A stretch of DNA of 64,000 nt from a bacterium (lineage in GTDB: Bacteria > Patescibacteriota > Minisyncoccia > Phycocordibacterales > CAIZLB01), in NCBI GenBank assembly GCA_037142735.1, contig JBAXAB010000002.1, positions 11,988-75,987 on the forward strand. Direction: 5' to 3'. Positions 15,197 through 53,351 of the stretch are shown piece by piece; position 1 is the stretch's first letter, and every line of letters begins with the position of its first letter. The notes under the pieces are model-generated. The model was not told where the DNA came from. It did not search any database and saw nothing but the letters and a program-made list of their open reading frames with translations. A program made the translations under genes and the position numbers.

Positions 15197-15294
15197 TTAT
15201 TACCTGTTTATACAAAGTTTTACACTTAGTTATCAAGGTTTTTGGGTGGTTATTACACAACCCTTACACAACCAGACCACAGTCTATAAACATT

Positions 15295-15315
15295 TTATCC
15301 ACATATTTATCCACG
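15295..15315. promoter_or_regulatory. two tandem DnaA-box-like 9-mers (TTATCCACA, TTATCCACG)
   Basis: direct sequence match to the DnaA box consensus, 12 nt apart, in the pilB-ruvB spacer. Confidence 0.3.
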
Positions 15316-15321
15316 TCACGT

Positions 15322-15357
15322 AAAGAGCCCTACTGTCAATTGACAGTAGGGCTCTTT
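15322..15357. terminator. 36-nt perfect palindrome (terminator-like hairpin or operator)
   Basis: aaagagccctactgtcaa/ttgacagtagggctcttt; downstream of pilB; no strong T-run. Confidence 0.45.
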
Positions 15358-15428
15358 CGGCGCTATTGTGTAAGAAGTTCTTTTCACTCTTCTTAACAAG
15401 GCTCTCAACTATTTCAGAAACAGGTCTT

Positions 15429-15578
15429 TGAATTTCTAAGCAATGCTTTCAATTATAAAATCGGAAGCCCAATGAGCCTCCAAGGATAGCTCCAGTACAT
15501 CACCGTAAGGTGATAACCAGATCGTCCTTTAAGAAACATCGATACACCGCGGGACGGTGGTATTGCTTAGAAATTCAA
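15429..15578. other. 150-bp element bounded by 17-bp perfect inverted repeats (structured ncRNA or MITE-like)
   Basis: ttgaatttctaagcaat ... attgcttagaaattcaa, 116 nt apart; interior has GNRA-capped short hairpins (tcacc-gtaa-ggtga; caccg-cggga-cggtg). Confidence 0.3.
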
Positions 15579-15685
15579 GGAACCGTTGAAAAAAGAAAGT
15601 GCACACAATATCTCAAAGTCTTCCGAAAGTACAAAGGATATCATGCGCACAACTACGAACAATAGGTTAACATGATCTATATTTT

Positions 15686-21780: not shown

Positions 21781-22881
21781 TTAGCGGTTCATGGGCATAA
21801 CTACGTATGAAAACGAATCATCATTTACAACTTTTATTACCAAAGGTGTATTTGTACCACTAAACATAAAAGTAAGACTGTCTGCTTTCAAAGAATTAAA
21901 AGCATCACTAATATATCTAAAATTAAAATTCAGACTAAGGTCGTCCCCTTTTACTGTTGCATTAATTAGAGAGGAATTTTCTCCAACTTCGTTGTTTTTA
22001 GAGATTATTTCCATCTGTTTCTCTTTTGAGTGGACGGTTAGTTTTACGTGATTAAAGGTATCAGTGAAAATAGTGCTTAGTTTTAAGCTGTTTATGAGGT
22101 CTTGTTTCAAAATAGTGACCTCAGAGGTAAACTCTTTTGGAAAAATAGCCTTATAATTAGGAAAGTTTCCTTCTGTTGTTCTTGAGACAAGATACAAATC
22201 GTCAACCATAATAGCCATTTGATTTTTATCTATCAAAATTGATATTTCAGCCTTTATATCGTCAATAATCCTTATAATTTCAGAGACGTTCTTGATAGGA
22301 ACAAGAATTGCAGGAAAATCTACTCCTTTTTTTGTTCTTACTTTCTTTTCAGCAAGACGGAAGCCATCTGTGGCAACAAAAACAATAGAATCTCCCTCAG
22401 GATAGATTTTAACACTAGATAGCTCTGGTTTTATAGTAGAGGTAGCGGAACTGTATGAAACACTCCTTAAACCCTCTATAAAGTCTTCTGAGGCTATATT
22501 AAAACCATTAGGTGATTCAATTCGCGGTATTGAAGGAAATTCTTCAGGGGAGAAACTTTTGATAATCGTACTGTTTTTTGAAGTTGATACGTGAAGATTG
22601 TTTTCTATGGTCTCTAATATTATAGATTTTTCGTTTCCAACATTTGAAAGAAATCCGTTCAAGATCGTACCCGGTGCAGCTACCTGTCCTTTTTCTGTCA
22701 CTTTAACAGGAATTTGAATTTCAATCCCTAAATCCAAGTTAGTGGCTTTGATAGTTAAACTATTATCCTGCGCTTCTATAAATATGCACTTCAAAATAGG
22801 CAAAGAAGCGTTTCTTCCGGTGACTTTTTCTGCTTTCGCTACAGCATGTGCCAGTTTTTCTTTAACGGATTCAATTTTCAT
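21781..22881 (-). CDS. dnaN: DNA polymerase III beta sliding clamp
   Basis: 366 aa, three-domain clamp; sits immediately downstream of dnaA. Confidence 0.85.
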   Translation of the reverse strand: MKIESVKEKLAHAVAKAEKVTGRNASLPILKCIFIEAQDNSLTIKATNLDLGIEIQIPVKVTEKGQVAAPGTILNGFLSNVGNEKSIILETIENNLHVSTSKNSTIIKSFSPEEFPSIPRIESPNGFNIASEDFIEGLRSVSYSSATSTIKPELSSVKIYPEGDSIVFVATDGFRLAEKKVRTKKGVDFPAILVPIKNVSEIIRIIDDIKAEISILIDKNQMAIMVDDLYLVSRTTEGNFPNYKAIFPKEFTSEVTILKQDLINSLKLSTIFTDTFNHVKLTVHSKEKQMEIISKNNEVGENSSLINATVKGDDLSLNFNFRYISDAFNSLKADSLTFMFSGTNTPLVIKVVNDDSFSYVVMPMNR

Positions 22882-23180
22882 TTCTTTATTGTATGTATTT
22901 AATTTTTATTTAATTTTTTACAAACCCCTTATTATTAGTCCTGTTGATATGTGGATAATCCCCAATCCCTTTTAATCTCTTTGTCTAATCGAAATTTTTA
23001 TCCCCACTCGTTTGTATAAGGTGTTGTTGGTTTGCGGGAAAAGTTCCATTGTTTATTTTTTCTGTGGAGAACTCCTTAATTATACACAACCTATTCTAAA
23101 ATAATTATGTATTTATCCTATACTTTTCCCGAAGTTTTCCACCGCTAGTACACAATCTTATTAACAAAAGATACAATTTT
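22882..23180. promoter_or_regulatory. candidate oriC (dnaA-dnaN spacer with DnaA-box cluster)
   Basis: AT-rich 299-bp spacer with TGTGGATAA (22950-22958, perfect), TTATCCCCA (22998-23006), TGTGGAGAA (23063-23071), TTATCCTAT (23113-23121). Confidence 0.55.
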
Positions 23181-24512
23181 TTAAATGAGCGCCTTAATCT
23201 GGTTTATTTCTCCGGCCAGTTCACTGTTGTTTTTCAATTCGTTTCTAATCTTTTCACACGAGTGAATGATGGTTGTATGGTCTCTTCCTCCCATTTTTTG
23301 TCCAATTGACGGGAAAGAGTGGTTAAATTCTTCACGGAGAAGATACATGGCCACTTGTCTGGGTTTAACTATCTCTTGGCGGCGAGTTTTGCTGTAAATA
23401 ATCTCTTCTTCTATGTTGTAGTAAGCAGAAACGGCCTTTATAACATCCTTAGCAGAGACATTTTTCTGAGGTTTTGTGGTATTTTTGGTAAGATTCTTAA
23501 TTTCCAACAGTGTTAAGTCCCGGTTCTTTAACTGGGACTGACAAATAATATTGTTTAAGATCCCTTCTAGTTCTCGAATGCTGCCGTGTACTGTTGTGGC
23601 AAGGAAGTCAGCTGTTTCGTGAGGTAAGTTAAAATTTCCATGCAGAGCTTTGGTCTTCAGGATGGCAATACGAGACTCTTGGTCAACAGGAGAAATATCA
23701 ATGATCATTCCCTGCATAAATCTTGATTTTAAACGATCCTCGAGGTTTTGGAGGTAATTGGGGTGCATATCAGAAGAAAAGATAATCTGTTTATTGCTGT
23801 CATATAAATAGTTGAACAGATGAAACAATTCTTCCTGGGTCTTTTCCTTATTAGAAAGAAATTGGATATCATCCATTATAAAAACATCGTATTTTCGGTA
23901 CTTTTCCTTAAAATTGTTAACTTTGTTGGCCTGCACAGCATTTACATAGTCCACCGTGAACTTTTCTGAGGTTACGTAGTGTACCCTCTTCTCTTTGTTG
24001 TGGTTTTTAAAGTAGTTCCCTACCGCCTGCATAAGGTGGGTTTTTCCCAAGCCGGTATTTCCGTGGAAAAAGAGCGGGTTATAAGCCACTGGCTTCTTTA
24101 AAATTGCCTGGGAAGCCGCATGCGCCAGTTCGTTAAAGGGCCCAACCACAAAAGTTTCGAAAGTATAGCGTGGATTAAGGTTGTCTTCAGGATTTATAAC
24201 AAGATTGTCCAAAGGAAGTTCTTTTGTGGGTCCTGGCTGAGGTGTTTTATCAGACTTTTTCTTCTCAGCTTGTCCTATTGAATACTCTAAAGACCTAACG
24301 TTTTCCTCTATATTACGTAAAGATTGCAAAATAACCTTATGGTACTTGGTCTGGAGCCAATCTTTAACAAAAGTGTTAGGAACCGCAAGAAACACTACAC
24401 CGTCCTCAATTTTGGATATAAAAGTATCTTTGAACCACGTGGTGAAGTTCGGGCGCGAGACTTCGAGTTCAACTTGAACCAAAGCTGTATCCCAAATTTT
24501 CTGTGTGTTCAT
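23181..24512 (-). CDS. dnaA: chromosomal replication initiator DnaA
   Basis: 443 aa; AAA+ Walker A GNTGLGKTHL, domain IV DNA-binding helix-turn-helix. Confidence 0.9.
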   Translation of the reverse strand: MNTQKIWDTALVQVELEVSRPNFTTWFKDTFISKIEDGVVFLAVPNTFVKDWLQTKYHKVILQSLRNIEENVRSLEYSIGQAEKKKSDKTPQPGPTKELPLDNLVINPEDNLNPRYTFETFVVGPFNELAHAASQAILKKPVAYNPLFFHGNTGLGKTHLMQAVGNYFKNHNKEKRVHYVTSEKFTVDYVNAVQANKVNNFKEKYRKYDVFIMDDIQFLSNKEKTQEELFHLFNYLYDSNKQIIFSSDMHPNYLQNLEDRLKSRFMQGMIIDISPVDQESRIAILKTKALHGNFNLPHETADFLATTVHGSIRELEGILNNIICQSQLKNRDLTLLEIKNLTKNTTKPQKNVSAKDVIKAVSAYYNIEEEIIYSKTRRQEIVKPRQVAMYLLREEFNHSFPSIGQKMGGRDHTTIIHSCEKIRNELKNNSELAGEINQIKALI

Positions 24513-24657
24513 AGTGGTTGCTATTATAGCTGTTCACAAACTCTTTGGAACTTGTGGAAAGTTTATAAACATGTTGATAAGGTGTGGACGGGGTGGATAA
24601 CCTCATTTCAACATATAATTTTGCCAAATCGGATAAATAGTATATACTCTCCCCATC
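24513..24657. promoter_or_regulatory. dnaA/rpmH divergent promoter region with DnaA-box-like sites
   Basis: gGTGGATAA at 24592-24600 (1 mismatch), TGTGGAaAg and TGTGGAcgg nearby. Confidence 0.35.
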
Positions 24658-24792
24658 ATGTCTCAAACATATAATCCATCAAAGCGAAAAAGAGCAACCA
24701 CTCACGGGTTTCTTGTTCGATCTAAAACTCACGGAGGCAAGCGCGTTCTAAAGGCTAGACGTCGAAAGGGACGAAAGAAGCTTTCTGTATAA
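24658..24792 (+). CDS. rpmH: 50S ribosomal protein L34
   Basis: 44-aa product [44 protein letters not shown]; not in the ORF track (<60 aa); canonical position before rnpA. Confidence 0.85.
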
Positions 24793-24804
24793 GGGTTTTG
24801 TACT

Positions 24805-25158
24805 ATGTTGCCAAAAAAACAAAGACTAACTTCTGTTGAAATAGAAGAGGTTATGATCAAAGGAAAGCCACTCTTTTCTGATTTTTTTGTGGTTAAATTC
24901 ATAAAAAACCACACATTAGAGATTGCGCAGGGTTTTAAGATCTCAGCTGTGTCTCCAAAAAAACCTTTTTCCACAGCCGCTCTTCGTAACAAGGCTCGCC
25001 GTAGAATATACTCTGCTCTAACTTCTTTTTTGGAGACACAAAAACCAAAATCAGGACTTCTAATTGCTATTGTTGGAAATAAAAAAGTCCTGGATATTCC
25101 CCTTTCTGACTTAAGTTTCTCTCTAGAGCAGACTTTCAGAAAAGGAGGTATACTGTAG
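24805..25158 (+). CDS. rnpA: ribonuclease P protein component
   Basis: 117 aa, basic, RnpA-like; rpmH-rnpA-yidC synteny. Confidence 0.8.
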   Translation: MLPKKQRLTSVEIEEVMIKGKPLFSDFFVVKFIKNHTLEIAQGFKISAVSPKKPFSTAALRNKARRRIYSALTSFLETQKPKSGLLIAIVGNKKVLDIPLSDLSFSLEQTFRKGGIL

Positions 25159-25161
25159 CCC

Positions 25162-25896
25162 ATGTTTTCATCATTTTATAACAATTTTCTTTATCATCCT
25201 TTATACAACGGCCTTGTTTATCTTATTGGGGTTGTCCCCTACCACGACGTTGGTATAGCGGTAGTGGTTCTTACTTTGGTAGTTAAGTTTATCCTTTTCC
25301 CTCTTTCAAAGAAGAGTGTAGTAACTCAGATCAAAATGAAACAGCTTGATCCTGAATTAAAAGCATTACAGGCAAAGTATAAAGATAATCGACAGGAATT
25401 GTCGCAACAATTACTTACGTTCTATAAAAAGAATCAATTAAACCCTTTCTCTGGCCTTTTTCTGATCCTTCTCCAGTTGCCTATTATCTTTGCTCTTTAT
25501 AAAGTTTTTTACTCTGGAGACATCCACATTATAAATACAACAATTCTCTATTCTTTTGTGGGCATTCCCGCTGCTATTAATACTATTTTCTTGGGAATAT
25601 TCGACCTTGCTATTAAACACTCGCTTTTCCTATCTATATTTGTCGGTATTACCCAGTTTATCCAAGCTCAGTTGGTTGTTCCTCCCCACGATAAAACTAA
25701 ACCAATAGATCCTAAAGACATGGGACAAAATTTGGCTCGTAGTATGAATACTCAAATGAAGTATGTTCTACCTGTATTTGTTGCCTTTATTTCATATTCC
25801 TTAGCCAGTCTGGTTTCTGTCTACTGGATCACAAGTAACATTTTCGCTATCGGTCAAGAGTTGTATTTCCGTAAAACTATTAAGAAGAAGTCTTAA
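25162..25896 (+). CDS. yidC: membrane protein insertase YidC (short Gram-positive/CPR type)
   Basis: 244 aa, five TM helices, conserved hydrophilic groove region; synteny after rnpA. Confidence 0.8.
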   Translation: MFSSFYNNFLYHPLYNGLVYLIGVVPYHDVGIAVVVLTLVVKFILFPLSKKSVVTQIKMKQLDPELKALQAKYKDNRQELSQQLLTFYKKNQLNPFSGLFLILLQLPIIFALYKVFYSGDIHIINTTILYSFVGIPAAINTIFLGIFDLAIKHSLFLSIFVGITQFIQAQLVVPPHDKTKPIDPKDMGQNLARSMNTQMKYVLPVFVAFISYSLASLVSVYWITSNIFAIGQELYFRKTIKKKS

Positions 25897-48815: not shown

Positions 48816-49793
48816 ATGAAAAATAAGCCTAAATCCCCTACTCTAGAATCAAGTTCAGAAAAGAAGATTAGCAAGCCTATAAGTGAGCTTGAGATGTATA
48901 AGAACCAATTTTTGGAATATGTAGAAATTGAAAAAGGCAGAAGTCTTAAAACAATAGAAAATTACGACAGGTATGTTCTTAGTTTCATTGAATATCTCAA
49001 AAGAGACATTTCTTCGCCAAATGTTTCTCATGTAACACAAGAAGTAATAAGAAGTTACAGATTATGGCTTAACAGAAGGGCATTGGGGGATATATATGGG
49101 TTGAATAACATTAGTAATGTTTCACGTGAGACATTAAAGAAGAAAACTCAGAATTACTACCTTATTGCCTTAAGGTCATTCCTTAAATACCTCAATAAAC
49201 GAGATATTAAAACAATTCCAGCGGACTCGATTGAATTGGCTAAGGTTTCAGAAAGGTCAATTGAGCTAATCTCAACAGAAGAGCTAAACAGGCTATTGGA
49301 TGCGCCAGATCAAGAAAAAGACACCCAAAAGGCATTGAGAGACAAGGCTATTTTGGAACTCCTGTTCTCGACTGGTCTGCGAGTTTCAGAGCTCTGTAAC
49401 TTACCAGTAGACCTCGATGTCTCAAAGGACGAGTTCTCAGTTCGAGGAAAAGGAGAAAAAGTCAGGGTTGTGTTTATATCAGACGGGGCTAGGGAAGCCG
49501 TAATGGCCTATAAGAAGGCGAATAAGACTATAGATAAGGCAAAGTTGTTTCATGTGACACCAAGGACAGTGGAGCGTGTTATAAGACAATACGCAATTAT
49601 TGCAGGAATCTCTAAAAAGGTGACCCCCCACGTTATAAGACATAGTTTTGCCACTGGATTGCTTCAGAATGGTGCGGACCTCAGGTCAGTTCAGATGTTG
49701 CTCGGACATGCCAGCATCTCTACGACCCAGATATACACACACTTAACAGACAAGCACCTAAGGGAGGTTCATAAAAAGTTCCATAAACGTTAA
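48816..49793 (+). CDS. tyrosine site-specific recombinase (XerC/XerD-like)
   Basis: 325 aa; catalytic R..HxxR..Y arrangement (LRVSEL ... HVIRHSFATGLL ... LLGHASISTTQIYTH); TATAAT -10 upstream. Confidence 0.75.
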   Translation: MKNKPKSPTLESSSEKKISKPISELEMYKNQFLEYVEIEKGRSLKTIENYDRYVLSFIEYLKRDISSPNVSHVTQEVIRSYRLWLNRRALGDIYGLNNISNVSRETLKKKTQNYYLIALRSFLKYLNKRDIKTIPADSIELAKVSERSIELISTEELNRLLDAPDQEKDTQKALRDKAILELLFSTGLRVSELCNLPVDLDVSKDEFSVRGKGEKVRVVFISDGAREAVMAYKKANKTIDKAKLFHVTPRTVERVIRQYAIIAGISKKVTPHVIRHSFATGLLQNGADLRSVQMLLGHASISTTQIYTHLTDKHLREVHKKFHKR

Positions 49794-49828: not shown

Positions 49829-50641
49829 TTGTGCCGCCTGATTTTGCTAAATCATATGAAACAAAGAAGCCTAAACATCTACTGCTGGAACGTCAATGGT
49901 ATAAGGGCCTGGCACAAAAAAGGATGTTTTGACGAAATGTTACACAAGAAACCTGACATCCTGTGTTTGCAAGAGACTAAGGCTCGTCCAGATCAATTAT
50001 CTGCCGATGTTCTGGCTCCTAAGGGTTATTACTCCTATTTTGAATATCCAAAAGTAAAAAAAGGTTACAGCGGGGTAGCTGTATATACCAAAATCAAGCC
50101 CGAAAAAGTAGAGTATGGCCTAAATATTGAAGATTTGGACATGGAAGGTAGGCAGATAACTCTATATTTTGAAGATTTTGTACTTATTAACTGCTATTTT
50201 CCAAATGGAGGAGGGGAGGATCATCGCCTAGAGTATAAAATGAAGTACTATAAGGCGTTTCTTGTGAAACTTAATAAGATAAGAGATAAATATAAGAAAA
50301 TCATATTTTGCGGAGATTTAAATGTTGCTCATACTGAAATTGATATTGAAAGACCTAAGGAAAATGAAAATCATGTTGGTTTCTTGCCTCAGGAGCGTAA
50401 ATGGGTGGATAGTCTTATAGAAAATGATTATTTGGATGTTTATCGTGAAACACACCCTGGTGAAACGAAGCATTATACTTGGTGGGATGTAAAGACCCGC
50501 TCTAGAGAAAGGAACGTAGGGTGGAGGATAGATTACTTTTTTACCACTAAGAACTTGTTGAAAAATGCTGTTAAGGCCGAAATTCATGAAAATATATTGG
50601 GATCTGACCACTGTCCTATATCATTGGAGATTCAGTTATAA
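49829..50641 (+). CDS. xth: exodeoxyribonuclease III (AP endonuclease)
   Basis: LNIYCWNVNG N-terminal motif and C-terminal DHCP motif of the EEP/ExoIII family. Confidence 0.85.
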   Translation: MCRLILLNHMKQRSLNIYCWNVNGIRAWHKKGCFDEMLHKKPDILCLQETKARPDQLSADVLAPKGYYSYFEYPKVKKGYSGVAVYTKIKPEKVEYGLNIEDLDMEGRQITLYFEDFVLINCYFPNGGGEDHRLEYKMKYYKAFLVKLNKIRDKYKKIIFCGDLNVAHTEIDIERPKENENHVGFLPQERKWVDSLIENDYLDVYRETHPGETKHYTWWDVKTRSRERNVGWRIDYFFTTKNLLKNAVKAEIHENILGSDHCPISLEIQL

Positions 50642-50693
50642 ATGCGAGGCGTATTTTAGTGGGTGTTTAAATAAAGGACAAATATATTTTATA

Positions 50694-50730
50694 TAGGACA
50701 GTTATCCCCATAAATGTCCTATACATTTTT
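50694..50730 (+). terminator. rho-independent terminator of xth
   Basis: taggaca-(14 nt)-tgtccta hairpin followed by a TTTTTT run. Confidence 0.5.
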
Positions 50731-50994
50731 TACGTAGGGTATATAATGTTTTCAGGTGGCGGCTTTGAAGAATTTAGCGCGATTGGTCTTTGATGGTTTA
50801 GGTAAGTTGGTTCGACATTAGTATCTAATTTCGAAGATTTTGTTAATAAATAGTCCTAGCAGATTTATTAACAATAAGTTTTTCGCTACCACTTGTTCTT
50901 TGAGTTTCCATTTTCGTTCCCCGGTCCAAGCCTTCCAAGTAATGGTTCAATAAAGCAAAAAGCGATTGGCAGGTTTTACAGTAGACACACAAAT

Positions 50995-51162
50995 TCATTC
51001 TTGAAAATGTTCTGACTGTTTTAAAACTCGTGCGCCAATCCTCTTTGAGCTAAAGCAATTACAAGGATTCACGGAGTCCATTCCGTGACGTGCACAAAAC
51101 GGACCTAGATTTCCCCCTAGTTCTTTACATTTTTTCTTACGCTTCCACTTGAAGCGTAACAT
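50995..51162 (-). CDS. possible 55-aa basic Cys-rich small protein (or fragment of a decayed gene)
   Basis: MLRFKWKRKKKCKELGGNLGPFCARHGMDSVNPCNCFSSKRIGARVLKQSEHFQE; no clear RBS; lies in a 616-bp gap. Confidence 0.2.
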   Translation of the reverse strand: MLRFKWKRKKKCKELGGNLGPFCARHGMDSVNPCNCFSSKRIGARVLKQSEHFQE

Positions 51163-51257
51163 GGTACTTAATACAATTCGGTGTTAAGTCTTACAAGGCC
51201 GCCTTCTTCCCGCAGGTGGCCTTTGTTGTTGAAGGGCTATTTTAGTACATAATAAAA

Positions 51258-52733
51258 TTATTGTACCCGGTGTTTATCACGAATTTCCTGAACTTCTACA
51301 CTTTCAGCGTTTTCTTTGGCCTTCAGCGCTAGCTCACTCATTTTTTTTAGTTCAGGTAATCCAAGACCGTTTAGTTCCATAGCTTTGTCTTTTAGGTAGC
51401 TTTCAGTGTTGTGTTCAGAATTTTCAATAATATCTTCTAATAAAATATTCAGAATGAAACCAATTTTAGGTCCTGGATTAAGCCCAGCTAACTTCATCAG
51501 TTCATTCCCATCAATTTTTAATTTTGAAACAGAAACTGGCTCACGTAGCACTTCATCTATCATCGACATATATTTTCTCAAACGGTAAGGGTCTTCTTTT
51601 GGTCTTCCTGTTCCAACACGGTCGCAAATTCTTAGGTTTACTAGATCCCAAATGTGATCAGTTCCAACATTTCTCACAATACGTCGTACGGCAGAGAGGG
51701 TGATTTGCTCTGTGTCAGAGAAAAACATGTGCCAACGAATCATAGTCGTCACTAGTTTGATTATTTCATTTTTAAACTTAAGTCTCTTTAAGATTACATC
51801 TGCCATTTTAGCCCCAACAACCTCGTGTCCGTGGAAAGTGTAATCTTTTCTTTCCTTCGCGTACCTTTGAGTTGGTGGTTTTCCAATGTCATGAAAAAGA
51901 GCAGATAGCCGAACATAAAATGGAAATCTTTTATCCGCACTACACTGGAGACTTCTTAATAAGTGTTCAAAAACGTCATAAGAGTGTGCTTGGTTTTGTT
52001 TAACGCCTACCGCGTTGCTTATTTCAGGGACAATATGTTTTAGCAATCCAAGTTTTTCTAGGAATACAAAACCCATCATTGGATTTTCTGACATGATAAT
52101 TTTAGATAGCTCATCACGAATCCTCTCAGAAGAAATTTGTTTAATTAAGTCAGCATTTTTTATTATTGAATTCTGTGTTTCAAAATCTATAGTAAAACCA
52201 AGTTCTGCGGAAAAACGAATCGCTCTCATTAGACGCAATGCATCTTCGGTGAATCTTTTATCAGGACTTCCAACCGCACGGATAGTTTTCGTTTTGATGT
52301 CTTGTAGTCCACTAAACTGATCAGTAATCTCACCGGTTATAACATCTGCTGCTAAGGCGTTGATGGTAAAATCTCGACGTTTAAGGTCGTCAGAAAGATT
52401 TTGACTGAACTGGACACTATCTGGGTGCCTATTGTCGCTATAAGACGATTCTATGCGGTAAGGCGTAACCTCTACAGTCTGTCCGTCCTCAAGAACAACA
52501 CCTACTGTCCCGAAGATGTTTTCATAAAAAGTCTTGGTGAAGAGGGGAATGATTTGTTCGGGCACGGCATTTGTTGTTAGGTCCCAGTCCTTTGGAACCC
52601 TTCCTAAAATTAAATCTCGCACACATCCACCCACAATATAAGCCTCGAAGCCTGCCTTCGATAAGGTCTCAGAGACATCGATAATTTGCTTCGGTATTGA
52701 ACTGATATCTATTTTTTCAGCAGCAGACTTCAT
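51258..52733 (-). CDS. cca: CCA tRNA nucleotidyltransferase / HD-domain poly(A) polymerase family
   Basis: N-terminal nucleotidyltransferase motif GGCVRDLILG..DWDL, C-terminal HD domain (HDIGK). Confidence 0.75.
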   Translation of the reverse strand: MKSAAEKIDISSIPKQIIDVSETLSKAGFEAYIVGGCVRDLILGRVPKDWDLTTNAVPEQIIPLFTKTFYENIFGTVGVVLEDGQTVEVTPYRIESSYSDNRHPDSVQFSQNLSDDLKRRDFTINALAADVITGEITDQFSGLQDIKTKTIRAVGSPDKRFTEDALRLMRAIRFSAELGFTIDFETQNSIIKNADLIKQISSERIRDELSKIIMSENPMMGFVFLEKLGLLKHIVPEISNAVGVKQNQAHSYDVFEHLLRSLQCSADKRFPFYVRLSALFHDIGKPPTQRYAKERKDYTFHGHEVVGAKMADVILKRLKFKNEIIKLVTTMIRWHMFFSDTEQITLSAVRRIVRNVGTDHIWDLVNLRICDRVGTGRPKEDPYRLRKYMSMIDEVLREPVSVSKLKIDGNELMKLAGLNPGPKIGFILNILLEDIIENSEHNTESYLKDKAMELNGLGLPELKKMSELALKAKENAESVEVQEIRDKHRVQ

Positions 52734-53011: not shown

Positions 53012-53351
53012 CAGAATATAATTCTAGCCTCTAGTTTCAAAAAACATTGATAAGTAAGGATTTTTATGAATTGGCCATTGCCAAAATGTGCAAAACTGTG
53101 GATAACTCAGTGGATATGTGTATAAAAGACAGATATCAAAAATGACAAAAATTGTCCTCTAGAAGTGTATTTTTCTAATATATCTATATTTATCAAGCTA
53201 TTTTGCGTTTTGGTGCATAAAAGACGCGGCTATAACATGTGACTTTTTATGTATCACGTGAAACATTGGTTTTATAGGATTTTAAGACAAATTAAGCAAT
53301 AATTCATTCAAGATTAAGGTTTATTTGCCTTTCGAAGCTTAAAATAGGAGA

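Follow-up and report, generated by a model that had tools for sequence, protein, structure and literature searches.

What occupies the long gap between xth and cca in a compact patescibacterial genome? The question arises in a 64,000-nucleotide (nt) stretch of contig JBAXAB010000002.1 (hereafter, the window), which derives from a low-GC member of the Patescibacteria and is about 90% coding on a crude map of non-overlapping open reading frames (ORFs). The gap (positions 50642-51257, 616 nt) lies between the convergent genes xth (+) and cca (-). It ranks second by size among the 63 inter-ORF gaps of the window, whose median is 56 nt, and the sole larger gap contains two tRNA genes. An earlier reading of the letters alone (the sequence-only reading) had singled it out as gene-free. 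The observation was confirmed, and neither a tRNA, a transfer-messenger RNA (tmRNA), nor an Rfam match was found within it. The gap probably holds the gene for a conserved structured non-coding RNA (ncRNA). Comparison with relatives shows a defined locus and strand, a conserved predicted promoter and terminator, and covarying helices, with no coding frame and no Rfam family.

Related loci were collected by a search for relatives of cca, which yielded 37 genome and 33 metagenome loci, nearly all at 49-60% identity, whose titles name Paceibacteria, Parcubacteria, Zambryskiibacteria, Taylorbacteria, and Kaiserbacteria. The gene order cca, gap, xth-xer-rpsO-NYN was conserved among them. The comparison of the xth-cca junction suggested by the sequence-only reading revealed no relative with the two genes directly adjacent; a gap of 353-2193 nt was present in 31 of the 31 genome loci having both xth and cca. 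Since the gap is kept at 353 nt or more while the median spacer of the window is 56 nt, the long xth-cca gap is, given the compactness of these genomes, a maintained feature, and the RNA locus was found to be present and syntenic in every relative having both flanking genes. The whole RNA unit is inverted between unchanged neighbours in three loci (L005, L028, and L048), which fits an autonomous gene. Closer relatives were obtained through xth homologues of 86, 84, 85, 81, 77, and 63% identity (contigs L082-L090), all of which are arranged as xer-xth-gap-cca, with gaps of 420-800 nt.

In about 56 of the 70 related loci, the gap contains a composite promoter, followed by the RNA and then by a terminator. 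The promoter of the relatives consists of TTATCCACA (the DnaA-box consensus), 4-15 nt of spacer, TGTCCTTTACA (which holds the -35 element), 17 nt, TAnnnT, and, about 6 nt further on, CAG. A strict pattern detected it in 46 of the 70 loci and relaxed spacing in 10 more, in a single copy per locus and always at the RNA unit; most of the loci without it are short contigs or remoter lineages. Two spacing classes were distinguished, in which TGTCC follows the box after about 14 nt or about 5 nt, and the window (TTATCCCCA-5 nt-TGTCCTATACA) falls in the short class. A second TGTCYTTTA copy is located near the -10 element or right after the -35 element. A profile built from 39 non-identical promoters of the relatives matched the 64 kb window at 50698-50758 (E = 0.0024), and its sole further match there was a DnaA-box-like site at 53087-53111.

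Within the gap, a promoter scan ranked TATACA-16-TATAAT as the top promoter-like site of the region. The strong -10 element TATATAAT, which the sequence-only reading had placed at 50740-50747, is present there, and its TATAAT pairs with TATACA at a distance of 16 nt. The control region of the window contains three TGTCCTWTA repeats in total, and the ATAAA(A/G)GACA copies are kept at the equivalent place in L082-L089. The TTATCCCCA variant of the DnaA box is found again at 22998, among the clustered boxes of the dnaA-dnaN region. The DnaA-box-like element suggests that the RNA gene may be controlled by DnaA.

The predicted RNA body shows the marks of selection on structure. Folding of the plus strand gave z = -4.35, with none of 100 shuffled sequences as good, compared to z = -1.98 for the minus strand, and the G-U pairs, many of them invariant, are compatible with the plus strand only. 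Five close lineages of the L082-L090 set align with the window over the entire unit. Upstream, they conserve the repeats, TTATCC(A/C)CA, TGTCCTATACA, and TATAAT; in the 5' part, they conserve CAGGUGGCGGC, then GCGCGA..GGUCUUUGA. ACAUGG is conserved as well. In the 3' domain of this window type (six lineages), 89.2% of the alignment cells were paired (34-48% in slid controls), both partners had changed in 16 of 34 pairs (2-6 in the controls), and the covariation score was reached by none of 500 shuffles. The long-range helix, for example, reads GCGAUUGGC/GCCAAUC, GCAGUCAAC/GUUGAUUC, and GUAAUCAGC/GCUGGUUAU among the close lineages, and the hairpin that contains CACGGA/UCCGUG in the window is compensated to CACAGA/UCUGUG in L082. 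The length of window-type RNAs ranges from 480 to 596 nt.

At the end of every unit stands a GC-rich stem with a run of U behind it. In the window, the stem GGCCGCC/GGUGGCC is formed by AAGGCCGCC (51195-51203) and GGTGGCCTT (51215-51223), followed by TGTTGTTG, and the terminator loop UUCUUCCCAC is itself conserved in the close lineages. The sequence-only reading had proposed a non-coding plus-strand transcript of about 480 nt, bounded by a different terminator-like hairpin. This proposal is supported by synteny, the promoter, compensatory changes, and the lack of an Rfam match, but the predicted 3' end had to be corrected to the conserved terminator. The hairpin itself exists on the plus strand (GCCTTT at 51219-51224, AAGGGC at 51232-51237, then TATTTT), but was not called a terminator by the scan and is not conserved. 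The features of the unit and of its surroundings are collected in Table 1.

Table 1. Predicted elements of the xth-cca RNA unit, with flanking, origin-proximal, and related features (window positions, unless a contig is named).
Feature	Positions	Strand	Basis or remark
Predicted structured ncRNA, ~478 nt	50754-51231	+	Fold z, alignment with L082-L089, covariation; 5' end CAGGUGGCGGC kept in close relatives
Core promoter: TGTCCTATACA, incl. -35 TATACA 50720-50725; 16-nt spacer; -10 TATAAT 50742-50747	50715-50747	+	Promoter scan, 10/12 positions matched
DnaA-box-like TTATCCCCA	50702-50710	+	5 nt upstream of the -35 repeat; TTATCCACA or TTATCCCCA here in ~56 related loci
Two upstream TGTCCTWTA repeat copies, reversed: TAAAGGACA 50672-50680, TATAGGACA 50692-50700	50672-50700	-	Read from sequence; putative transcription-factor sites
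Box-like GGUCUUUG	50785-50792	+	Kept in close relatives as GGUCUUUGA
GUUCUUUG box	50895-50902	+	Corresponds in position to that of subtypes A, B, and C
Long-range helix AAGCGAUUGGC (50960-50970) / GCCAAUCCUCU (51034-51044), enclosing conserved UGUUCU	50960-51044	+	Ten pairs, 4 double-changed, ~92% of cells paired
Hairpin UCACGGA-GUCCAU-UCCGUGA, conserved loop	51069-51088	+	3/7 pairs changed on both sides
GUUCUUU box, predicted unpaired	51120-51126	+	Identical in 6/6 close lineages
Hairpin UACGCUUC-CACUU-GAAGCGUA	51138-51158	+	6/8 pairs changed on both sides
Conserved intrinsic terminator: stem AAGGCCGCC / GGUGGCCUU, conserved loop UUCUUCCCGCA, U-rich tail UGUUGUUG	51195-51231	+	Nine pairs, 98% of cells paired, 3 double-changed
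Hairpin GCCUUU-GUUGUUG-AAGGGC, then UAUUUU (sequence-only reading)	51219-51243	+	Overlaps the tail of the conserved terminator; not conserved
55-amino-acid ORF, basic, four Cys	50995-51162	-	Judged spurious, antisense to the RNA
xth (exodeoxyribonuclease III), upstream flank	49829-50641	+	Pfam Exo_endo_phos 1.3e-32; homologues up to 86% identical
cca (CCA-adding tRNA nucleotidyltransferase), convergent flank	51258-52733	-	Pfam PolyA_pol, PolyA_pol_RNAbd, HD
parS-like sites	49022-49037, 49118-49133, 49546-49561, 50437-50452, 53250-53265		Four inside xer or xth
Origin neighbourhood: dnaN 21781-22881 (-), dnaA 23181-24512 (-), rpmH 24658-24792, rnpA 24805-25158, yidC 25162-25896	21781-25896		
Composite promoter on IMG/VR contigs	L071:185-260, L077:1452-1530, L080:1994-2070, L072:1041-1110		
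UAUCUA(A/C) loop examples	L022:1800-1815, L015:7595-7610		

Two further elements of the window RNA were considered. A 5' closing helix, GGUGGCG (50756) with CGCUACC (50884), was rejected, as it is not conserved in close relatives. The window also carries GUAUCUAAU in a hairpin loop (50811-50835; motif position 50821-50829), and several hairpin loops of subtypes A and B (see below) likewise contain UAUCUA(A/C); GUAUCUAAU is complementary to the universal 790 loop of 16S rRNA. The shared loop motif was dropped for the window, since it is not kept in the closest relatives and is probably due to chance, 16S matches of this length being expected by chance on a rough estimate.

Across the wider set of relatives, the RNA body diverges fast, ranging from about 175 to 600 nt. 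Several subtypes of the transcribed part, with no alignment possible between them, were distinguished: subtype A (280-310 nt; nhmmer detected 23 loci), B (350-395 nt; L015 and L020), C (400-425 nt; L024 and L025), D (335 nt; L033 and L059), E (177-188 nt; L052, L056, and L065), and singletons of about 200-400 nt (L026, L028, and L090). The structure of subtype A was derived with RNAalifold from an alignment of 22 sequences. In this alignment, 88.5% of the cells were paired, compared to 38-49% when the 3' partners were slid by 1-3 columns, 37 of the 57 pairs were changed on both sides, compared to 12-22 in the slid controls, and none of 500 shuffles reached the covariation score. The predicted fold contains a 5' hairpin whose loop, AUAAACCC, is invariant, the unpaired segment UUGUUCUUUG, a 7-bp hairpin that covaries at every pair, a long-range helix around further hairpins, and a long terminator stem. 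Its invariant G-U pairs are compatible only with the strand defined by the promoter.

The subtypes are linked by what surrounds the body and by one short box. When the window gap was compared with relatives at 50-60% cca identity using nhmmer, only the promoter matched. GTTCTTT was found in 28 of 43 non-redundant RNAs, whereas the best k-mer of shuffled sets reaches 11, and the GUUCUUU(G/C) box occurs in 1.16 copies per RNA, compared to 0.38 in shuffles; this short box is the only element common to the RNA bodies across subtypes. The singleton L090 (xth 63% identical) is intermediate, combining a long-spacer, B-like promoter with the window-type box context GUUCUUUCACAA. Because the units share their slot and orientation, a homologous composite promoter, a CAG start, the GUUCUUU(G/C) box, and a CCGC/GCGG-type terminator, a common origin of the window-type RNA and the other subtypes is likely, as judged from these sequence features, but not proven. 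On this reading, the predicted RNA of the window is the local version of an RNA kept between xth and cca by Paceibacteria-type Patescibacteria.

How might such an RNA act? Transcription would start from the sigma-70-type promoter TATACA-16-TATAAT within the control region and would end at the GC stem with its U-rich tail, and synthesis might be tuned by DnaA and by a factor that binds TGTCCTWTA. The RNA would then be a trans-acting regulator whose active parts are its invariant unpaired pyrimidine boxes, GUUCUUU and the UCUUCCC-type terminator loop; these could pair with purine-rich, ribosome-binding-site-like segments of mRNAs, or bind a protein. A regulatory RNA is suggested because the promoter is elaborate and conserved, the terminator is Rho-independent, the body changes fast, and only a few pyrimidine-rich elements are invariant and unpaired. 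These elements comprise GUUCUUU, UCUUCYCC before or in the terminator, and C-rich loops such as that of the 5' hairpin in subtype A. A promoter of its own and a Rho-independent terminator, as expected of a trans-acting small RNA (sRNA), were both found, by sequence only. Regulation in trans through the pyrimidine boxes, whether these are sites of mRNA pairing or of protein binding, is a possibility that can be advanced only tentatively.

Several observations weigh against the gene, its placement in the family, or its proposed action. Both ends of the RNA, like its promoter, are predictions read from sequence alone, and direct structural support for the window RNA comes from only six close lineages, a small sample, with a 5' half that aligns poorly. 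Profiles of subtypes A-E gave no significant match to the window RNA, so that it is tied to these subtypes by its syntenic position and orientation, its homologous promoter, the short box, and the terminator. A search for targets found none: complements of the GUUCUUUG box were not enriched in the window (20, compared to 13.4 expected), and box complements at the starts of cca, xth, rpsO, and NYN were not conserved; C-rich, anti-Shine-Dalgarno-like motifs were modestly enriched (4.5 compared to 3.6 per RNA). The putative DnaA-like box of the window, TTATCCCCA, departs from the consensus at a conserved position. Finally, the composite promoter also appears to drive protein genes on IMG/VR contigs, and may therefore simply be a general type of strong promoter, not a switch dedicated to regulation.

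The last point concerns putative phage contigs of IMG/VR, on which the composite promoter (TTATCCACA-N13/14-TGTCCTTTACA-...-TACAAT, with a second TGTCTTTTAT) is located directly upstream of protein genes. Neither of two L071 proteins, a 575-residue protein behind the promoter and a 203-residue protein downstream, gave a PHROG match. Phages of these bacteria may copy the promoter type, or the IMG/VR contigs may be misassigned host sequences. Elements of the RNA promoter also recur within the window, in a different order, in the spacer between a tRNA-Gly gene and a UPF0102 gene (53087-53131, minus strand), where AGTTATCCACAGTTTTG, a second box ATATCCAC, and TGTCTTTTATA were observed; a parS-like site is located 120 nt from this control-like cluster.

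The same data might also be explained by an abundant protein-binding or scaffold RNA, similar to 6S, CsrB, or ribonucleoprotein (RNP) RNAs, in which the GUUCUUU-like boxes would be protein sites and the promoter would serve high constitutive expression. Three box-like copies are present in the window RNA (50785, 50895, and 51120) and three in L028, and a covarying architecture of up to 600 nt is unusual for a seed-type sRNA. The occurrence of the RNA at a fixed locus in nearly every member of the clade, and the promoter type shared with protein genes of phage contigs, which suggests a strong promoter, point in the same direction. However, most subtypes have about one box (the mean given above), the core structure differs between subtypes, unlike that of typical RNP RNAs, and the shape is multi-branched rather than a 6S-like rod with a central bubble. 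An abundant protein-binding or scaffold RNA was considered rather unlikely.

A more far-reaching proposal is that the locus defines a new class of large structured RNA of Paceibacteria-type Patescibacteria which, placed in the origin-proximal parS zone and under a DnaA-controlled promoter, would couple the state of replication or the cell cycle to another core process, such as gene expression. This is improbable as it stands; if true, a DnaA-controlled RNA might stand in for regulators that these minimal, host-dependent bacteria lack.

The setting of the locus bears on this proposal, and on the alternative that the region matters as DNA, as an origin-proximal control region with a DnaA box, parS, and factor-binding repeats, whose transcription is incidental. 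A search for parS-like sites (TGTTTCACGTGAAACA, allowing 3 mismatches at most) found five in the window, compared to 0.52 expected, and all of them lie within 49.0-53.3 kb; in relatives, GTTTCACGTGAAA copies follow the RNA terminator, ahead of the stop codon of cca. The RNA gene may thus lie inside a putative ParB/parS centromere zone. The dnaA gene and two oriC-like clusters of DnaA boxes (22950-23088 and 24572-24975) are about 26 kb away, and the DnaA-box-like element of the promoter is conserved. Against a role as DNA, compensatory changes keep helices over about 300-500 nt past the promoter, which only selection on RNA explains, the G-U pairs fix one strand, the unit closes with a conserved terminator, and each locus has no more than a single DnaA-like box. 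It was, therefore, judged very unlikely that the DNA itself is the functional entity.

Two observations were made beside this subject. Locus L031 (7477-7915; cca 52% identical) holds, in the slot downstream of cca, what appears by eye only to be a frameshifted HIT-family gene, together with the parS-like TTTCACGTGAAA. The composite promoter was not detected at this locus, which would mark a limit of the distribution of the RNA. In the window, the third-largest spacer (15197-15685), 489 nt long and flanked by ruvB and a gene for a T2SSE-type ATPase, contains two adjoining DnaA-box-like sites at 15295-15315.

Could the RNA be a known one in disguise? Covariance-model searches with Rfam gave no match in the gap at the gathering score, nor with the E threshold relaxed to 10. 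Only tRNAs were found in 12 related loci at the gathering score, and nothing above noise in three representative RNAs (window type, subtype A, and subtype B) at E up to 10. No known housekeeping RNA was thus recognized by the scan that the sequence-only reading had recommended. Its own failure to find features of RNase P RNA and tmRNA agrees with the lack of RF00010, RF00011, and RF00023 matches and with the negative ARAGORN result; ARAGORN located five tRNAs in the window, none of them inside the gap.

A housekeeping RNA (RNase P RNA, tmRNA, 6S RNA, or signal recognition particle RNA) so divergent that standard models miss it has, nevertheless, some circumstantial appeal. RnpA is encoded in the window (Pfam Ribonuclease_P, 6.4e-8), and an RNase P RNA must, therefore, exist somewhere in the genome; none was found in the 64 kb window. 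The neighbours are related to tRNA (cca and four tRNA genes), and structured RNAs of Patescibacteria can escape models, as is reported for divergent group I introns, which can escape RF00028 (PMC13011429). The individual candidates fail on inspection. RNase P RNA was rejected because neither RF00010 nor RF00011 matched, even with E up to 10, and because the subtypes have no alignable core in common; subtype E (177-188 nt) falls below the size of RNase P RNA, which is at least about 270 nt, and none of the P4 motifs of CR-I and CR-V (GGAAAGUCC, ACAGAAnCCGGCUUA) was seen on reading the sequences and alignments, no pattern search having been run. tmRNA was rejected because ARAGORN reported nothing in the gap, RF00023 did not match, and the 3' end is an intrinsic terminator hairpin, without T-arm or acceptor stem. 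6S RNA was rejected because the folds are multi-branched and 175-600 nt in size, with no match to RF00013 in Rfam. A missed housekeeping RNA is, accordingly, a very slim prospect.

Other RNA classes were rejected as well. A riboswitch, T-box, or other leader is incompatible with the convergent orientation of the next gene, cca, and with the invertibility of the unit, and no cis-regulatory Rfam match rose above noise (Phe_leader, 22 bits compared to a gathering score of 55). A group I or II intron was dismissed, since a promoter and a terminator bound the unit, the flanks contain no split halves of a tRNA, rRNA, or protein gene, and no intron model matched, with the caveat, given above, that RF00028 can miss divergent group I introns of Patescibacteria. 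OLE, GOLLD, ROOL, HEARO, and raiA had no match in the window, in the 12 relatives at the gathering score, or in the three representatives at E up to 10.

The sequence-only reading had also entertained a small zinc-binding protein. Its 55-residue ORF on the minus strand, basic and with four Cys, is indeed present, but it had no homologue among 5.8 billion protein clusters and no Pfam match; nor did the two longest ORFs of the gap match Pfam. The gap ORFs have no counterpart in the 70 loci. Close relatives (xth 77-86% identical) keep only a 7-residue stretch of the 55-residue frame, which coincides with a conserved RNA hairpin, and the ORFs in their gaps vary in strand, length, and sequence, so that no ORF is conserved in position or strand. 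The ORF was rejected as a gene, being a chance frame antisense to covarying helices, and the prospect that it or another small ORF of the gap is a gene is close to nil. A decayed mobile element or non-functional spacer, suggested earlier by the xerC/D-like tyrosine recombinase gene (xer) two genes upstream, is equally hard to credit, because the entire NYN-rpsO-xer-xth-RNA-cca block, recombinase included, is syntenic across dozens of genomes, which makes xer a resident chromosomal gene and the gap a maintained structured locus, because the gap never shrinks towards the median spacer, and because promoter, helices, and terminator are conserved.

The preferred reading is, then, a free-standing gene for a structured ncRNA. 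The family is well supported and absent from Rfam 15; RNAs of this general kind are familiar in bacteria, and it is the sequence, architecture, promoter, and phylogenetic setting that are new. Literature searches on ncRNAs of Patescibacteria returned no description of this RNA and no paper on regulatory RNAs in the phylum. The Patescibacteria (Candidate Phyla Radiation), whose genomes are tiny and whose spacers are very short, account for much of bacterial diversity. An RNA of 0.2-0.6 kb that a whole class-level lineage has retained at one locus, behind an unusual promoter that is itself tightly conserved, probably has an important part in the life of these bacteria. Absence from Rfam 15 means that annotation pipelines leave the xth-cca locus blank, and a definition of the family would improve the annotation of thousands of metagenome-assembled genomes. 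The combined DnaA-box and TGTCCTWTA promoter, found also on some putative phage contigs, would give a handle on transcription control, and the family would add a fast-evolving yet clearly structured RNA for study.

Known systems resemble parts of the predicted unit. Its promoter recalls DnaA-regulated promoters, such as those of dnaA and nrd, in having a near-consensus box (in most relatives, TTATCCACA) that precedes the -35 element by a constant interval; it differs in serving a non-coding gene, in adding TGTCCTWTA repeats, and in occurring on viral contigs, and DnaA binding is putative. Like 6S RNA and Ms1 of Actinobacteria, the RNA is fast-evolving, free-standing, clade-wide, and, as predicted, probably highly expressed, and the 5' end of the window RNA, GGCGGC, is complementary to a 3' GCCGCC, which recalls a closing stem; the multi-branched fold, sizes up to 600 nt, and the lack of a 6S match in Rfam set it apart. 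With OLE, GOLLD, ROOL, and the raiA motif, it shares a large, elaborate, covariation-supported, and lineage-restricted structure, and, with GOLLD and ROOL, proximity to tRNA genes, whereas it has no Rfam match, a weaker shared core, a Paceibacteria range, and a fixed chromosomal rather than prophage synteny. In function, the nearest analogues would be Staphylococcus RNAIII and RsaE-type RNAs, which pair with ribosome-binding sites through C-rich loops, including a terminator loop. The window RNA shares neither sequence nor Rfam kinship with RNAIII and RsaE/RoxS, belongs to another phylum, and, at 175-600 nt across its family and with long-range helices, exceeds typical sRNAs. The likeness lies in a free-standing gene with its own promoter, an intrinsic terminator, and many hairpins, in unpaired pyrimidine- or C-rich elements, including the terminator loop UUCUUCCCAC, and in a fast turnover of the sequence outside the boxes.

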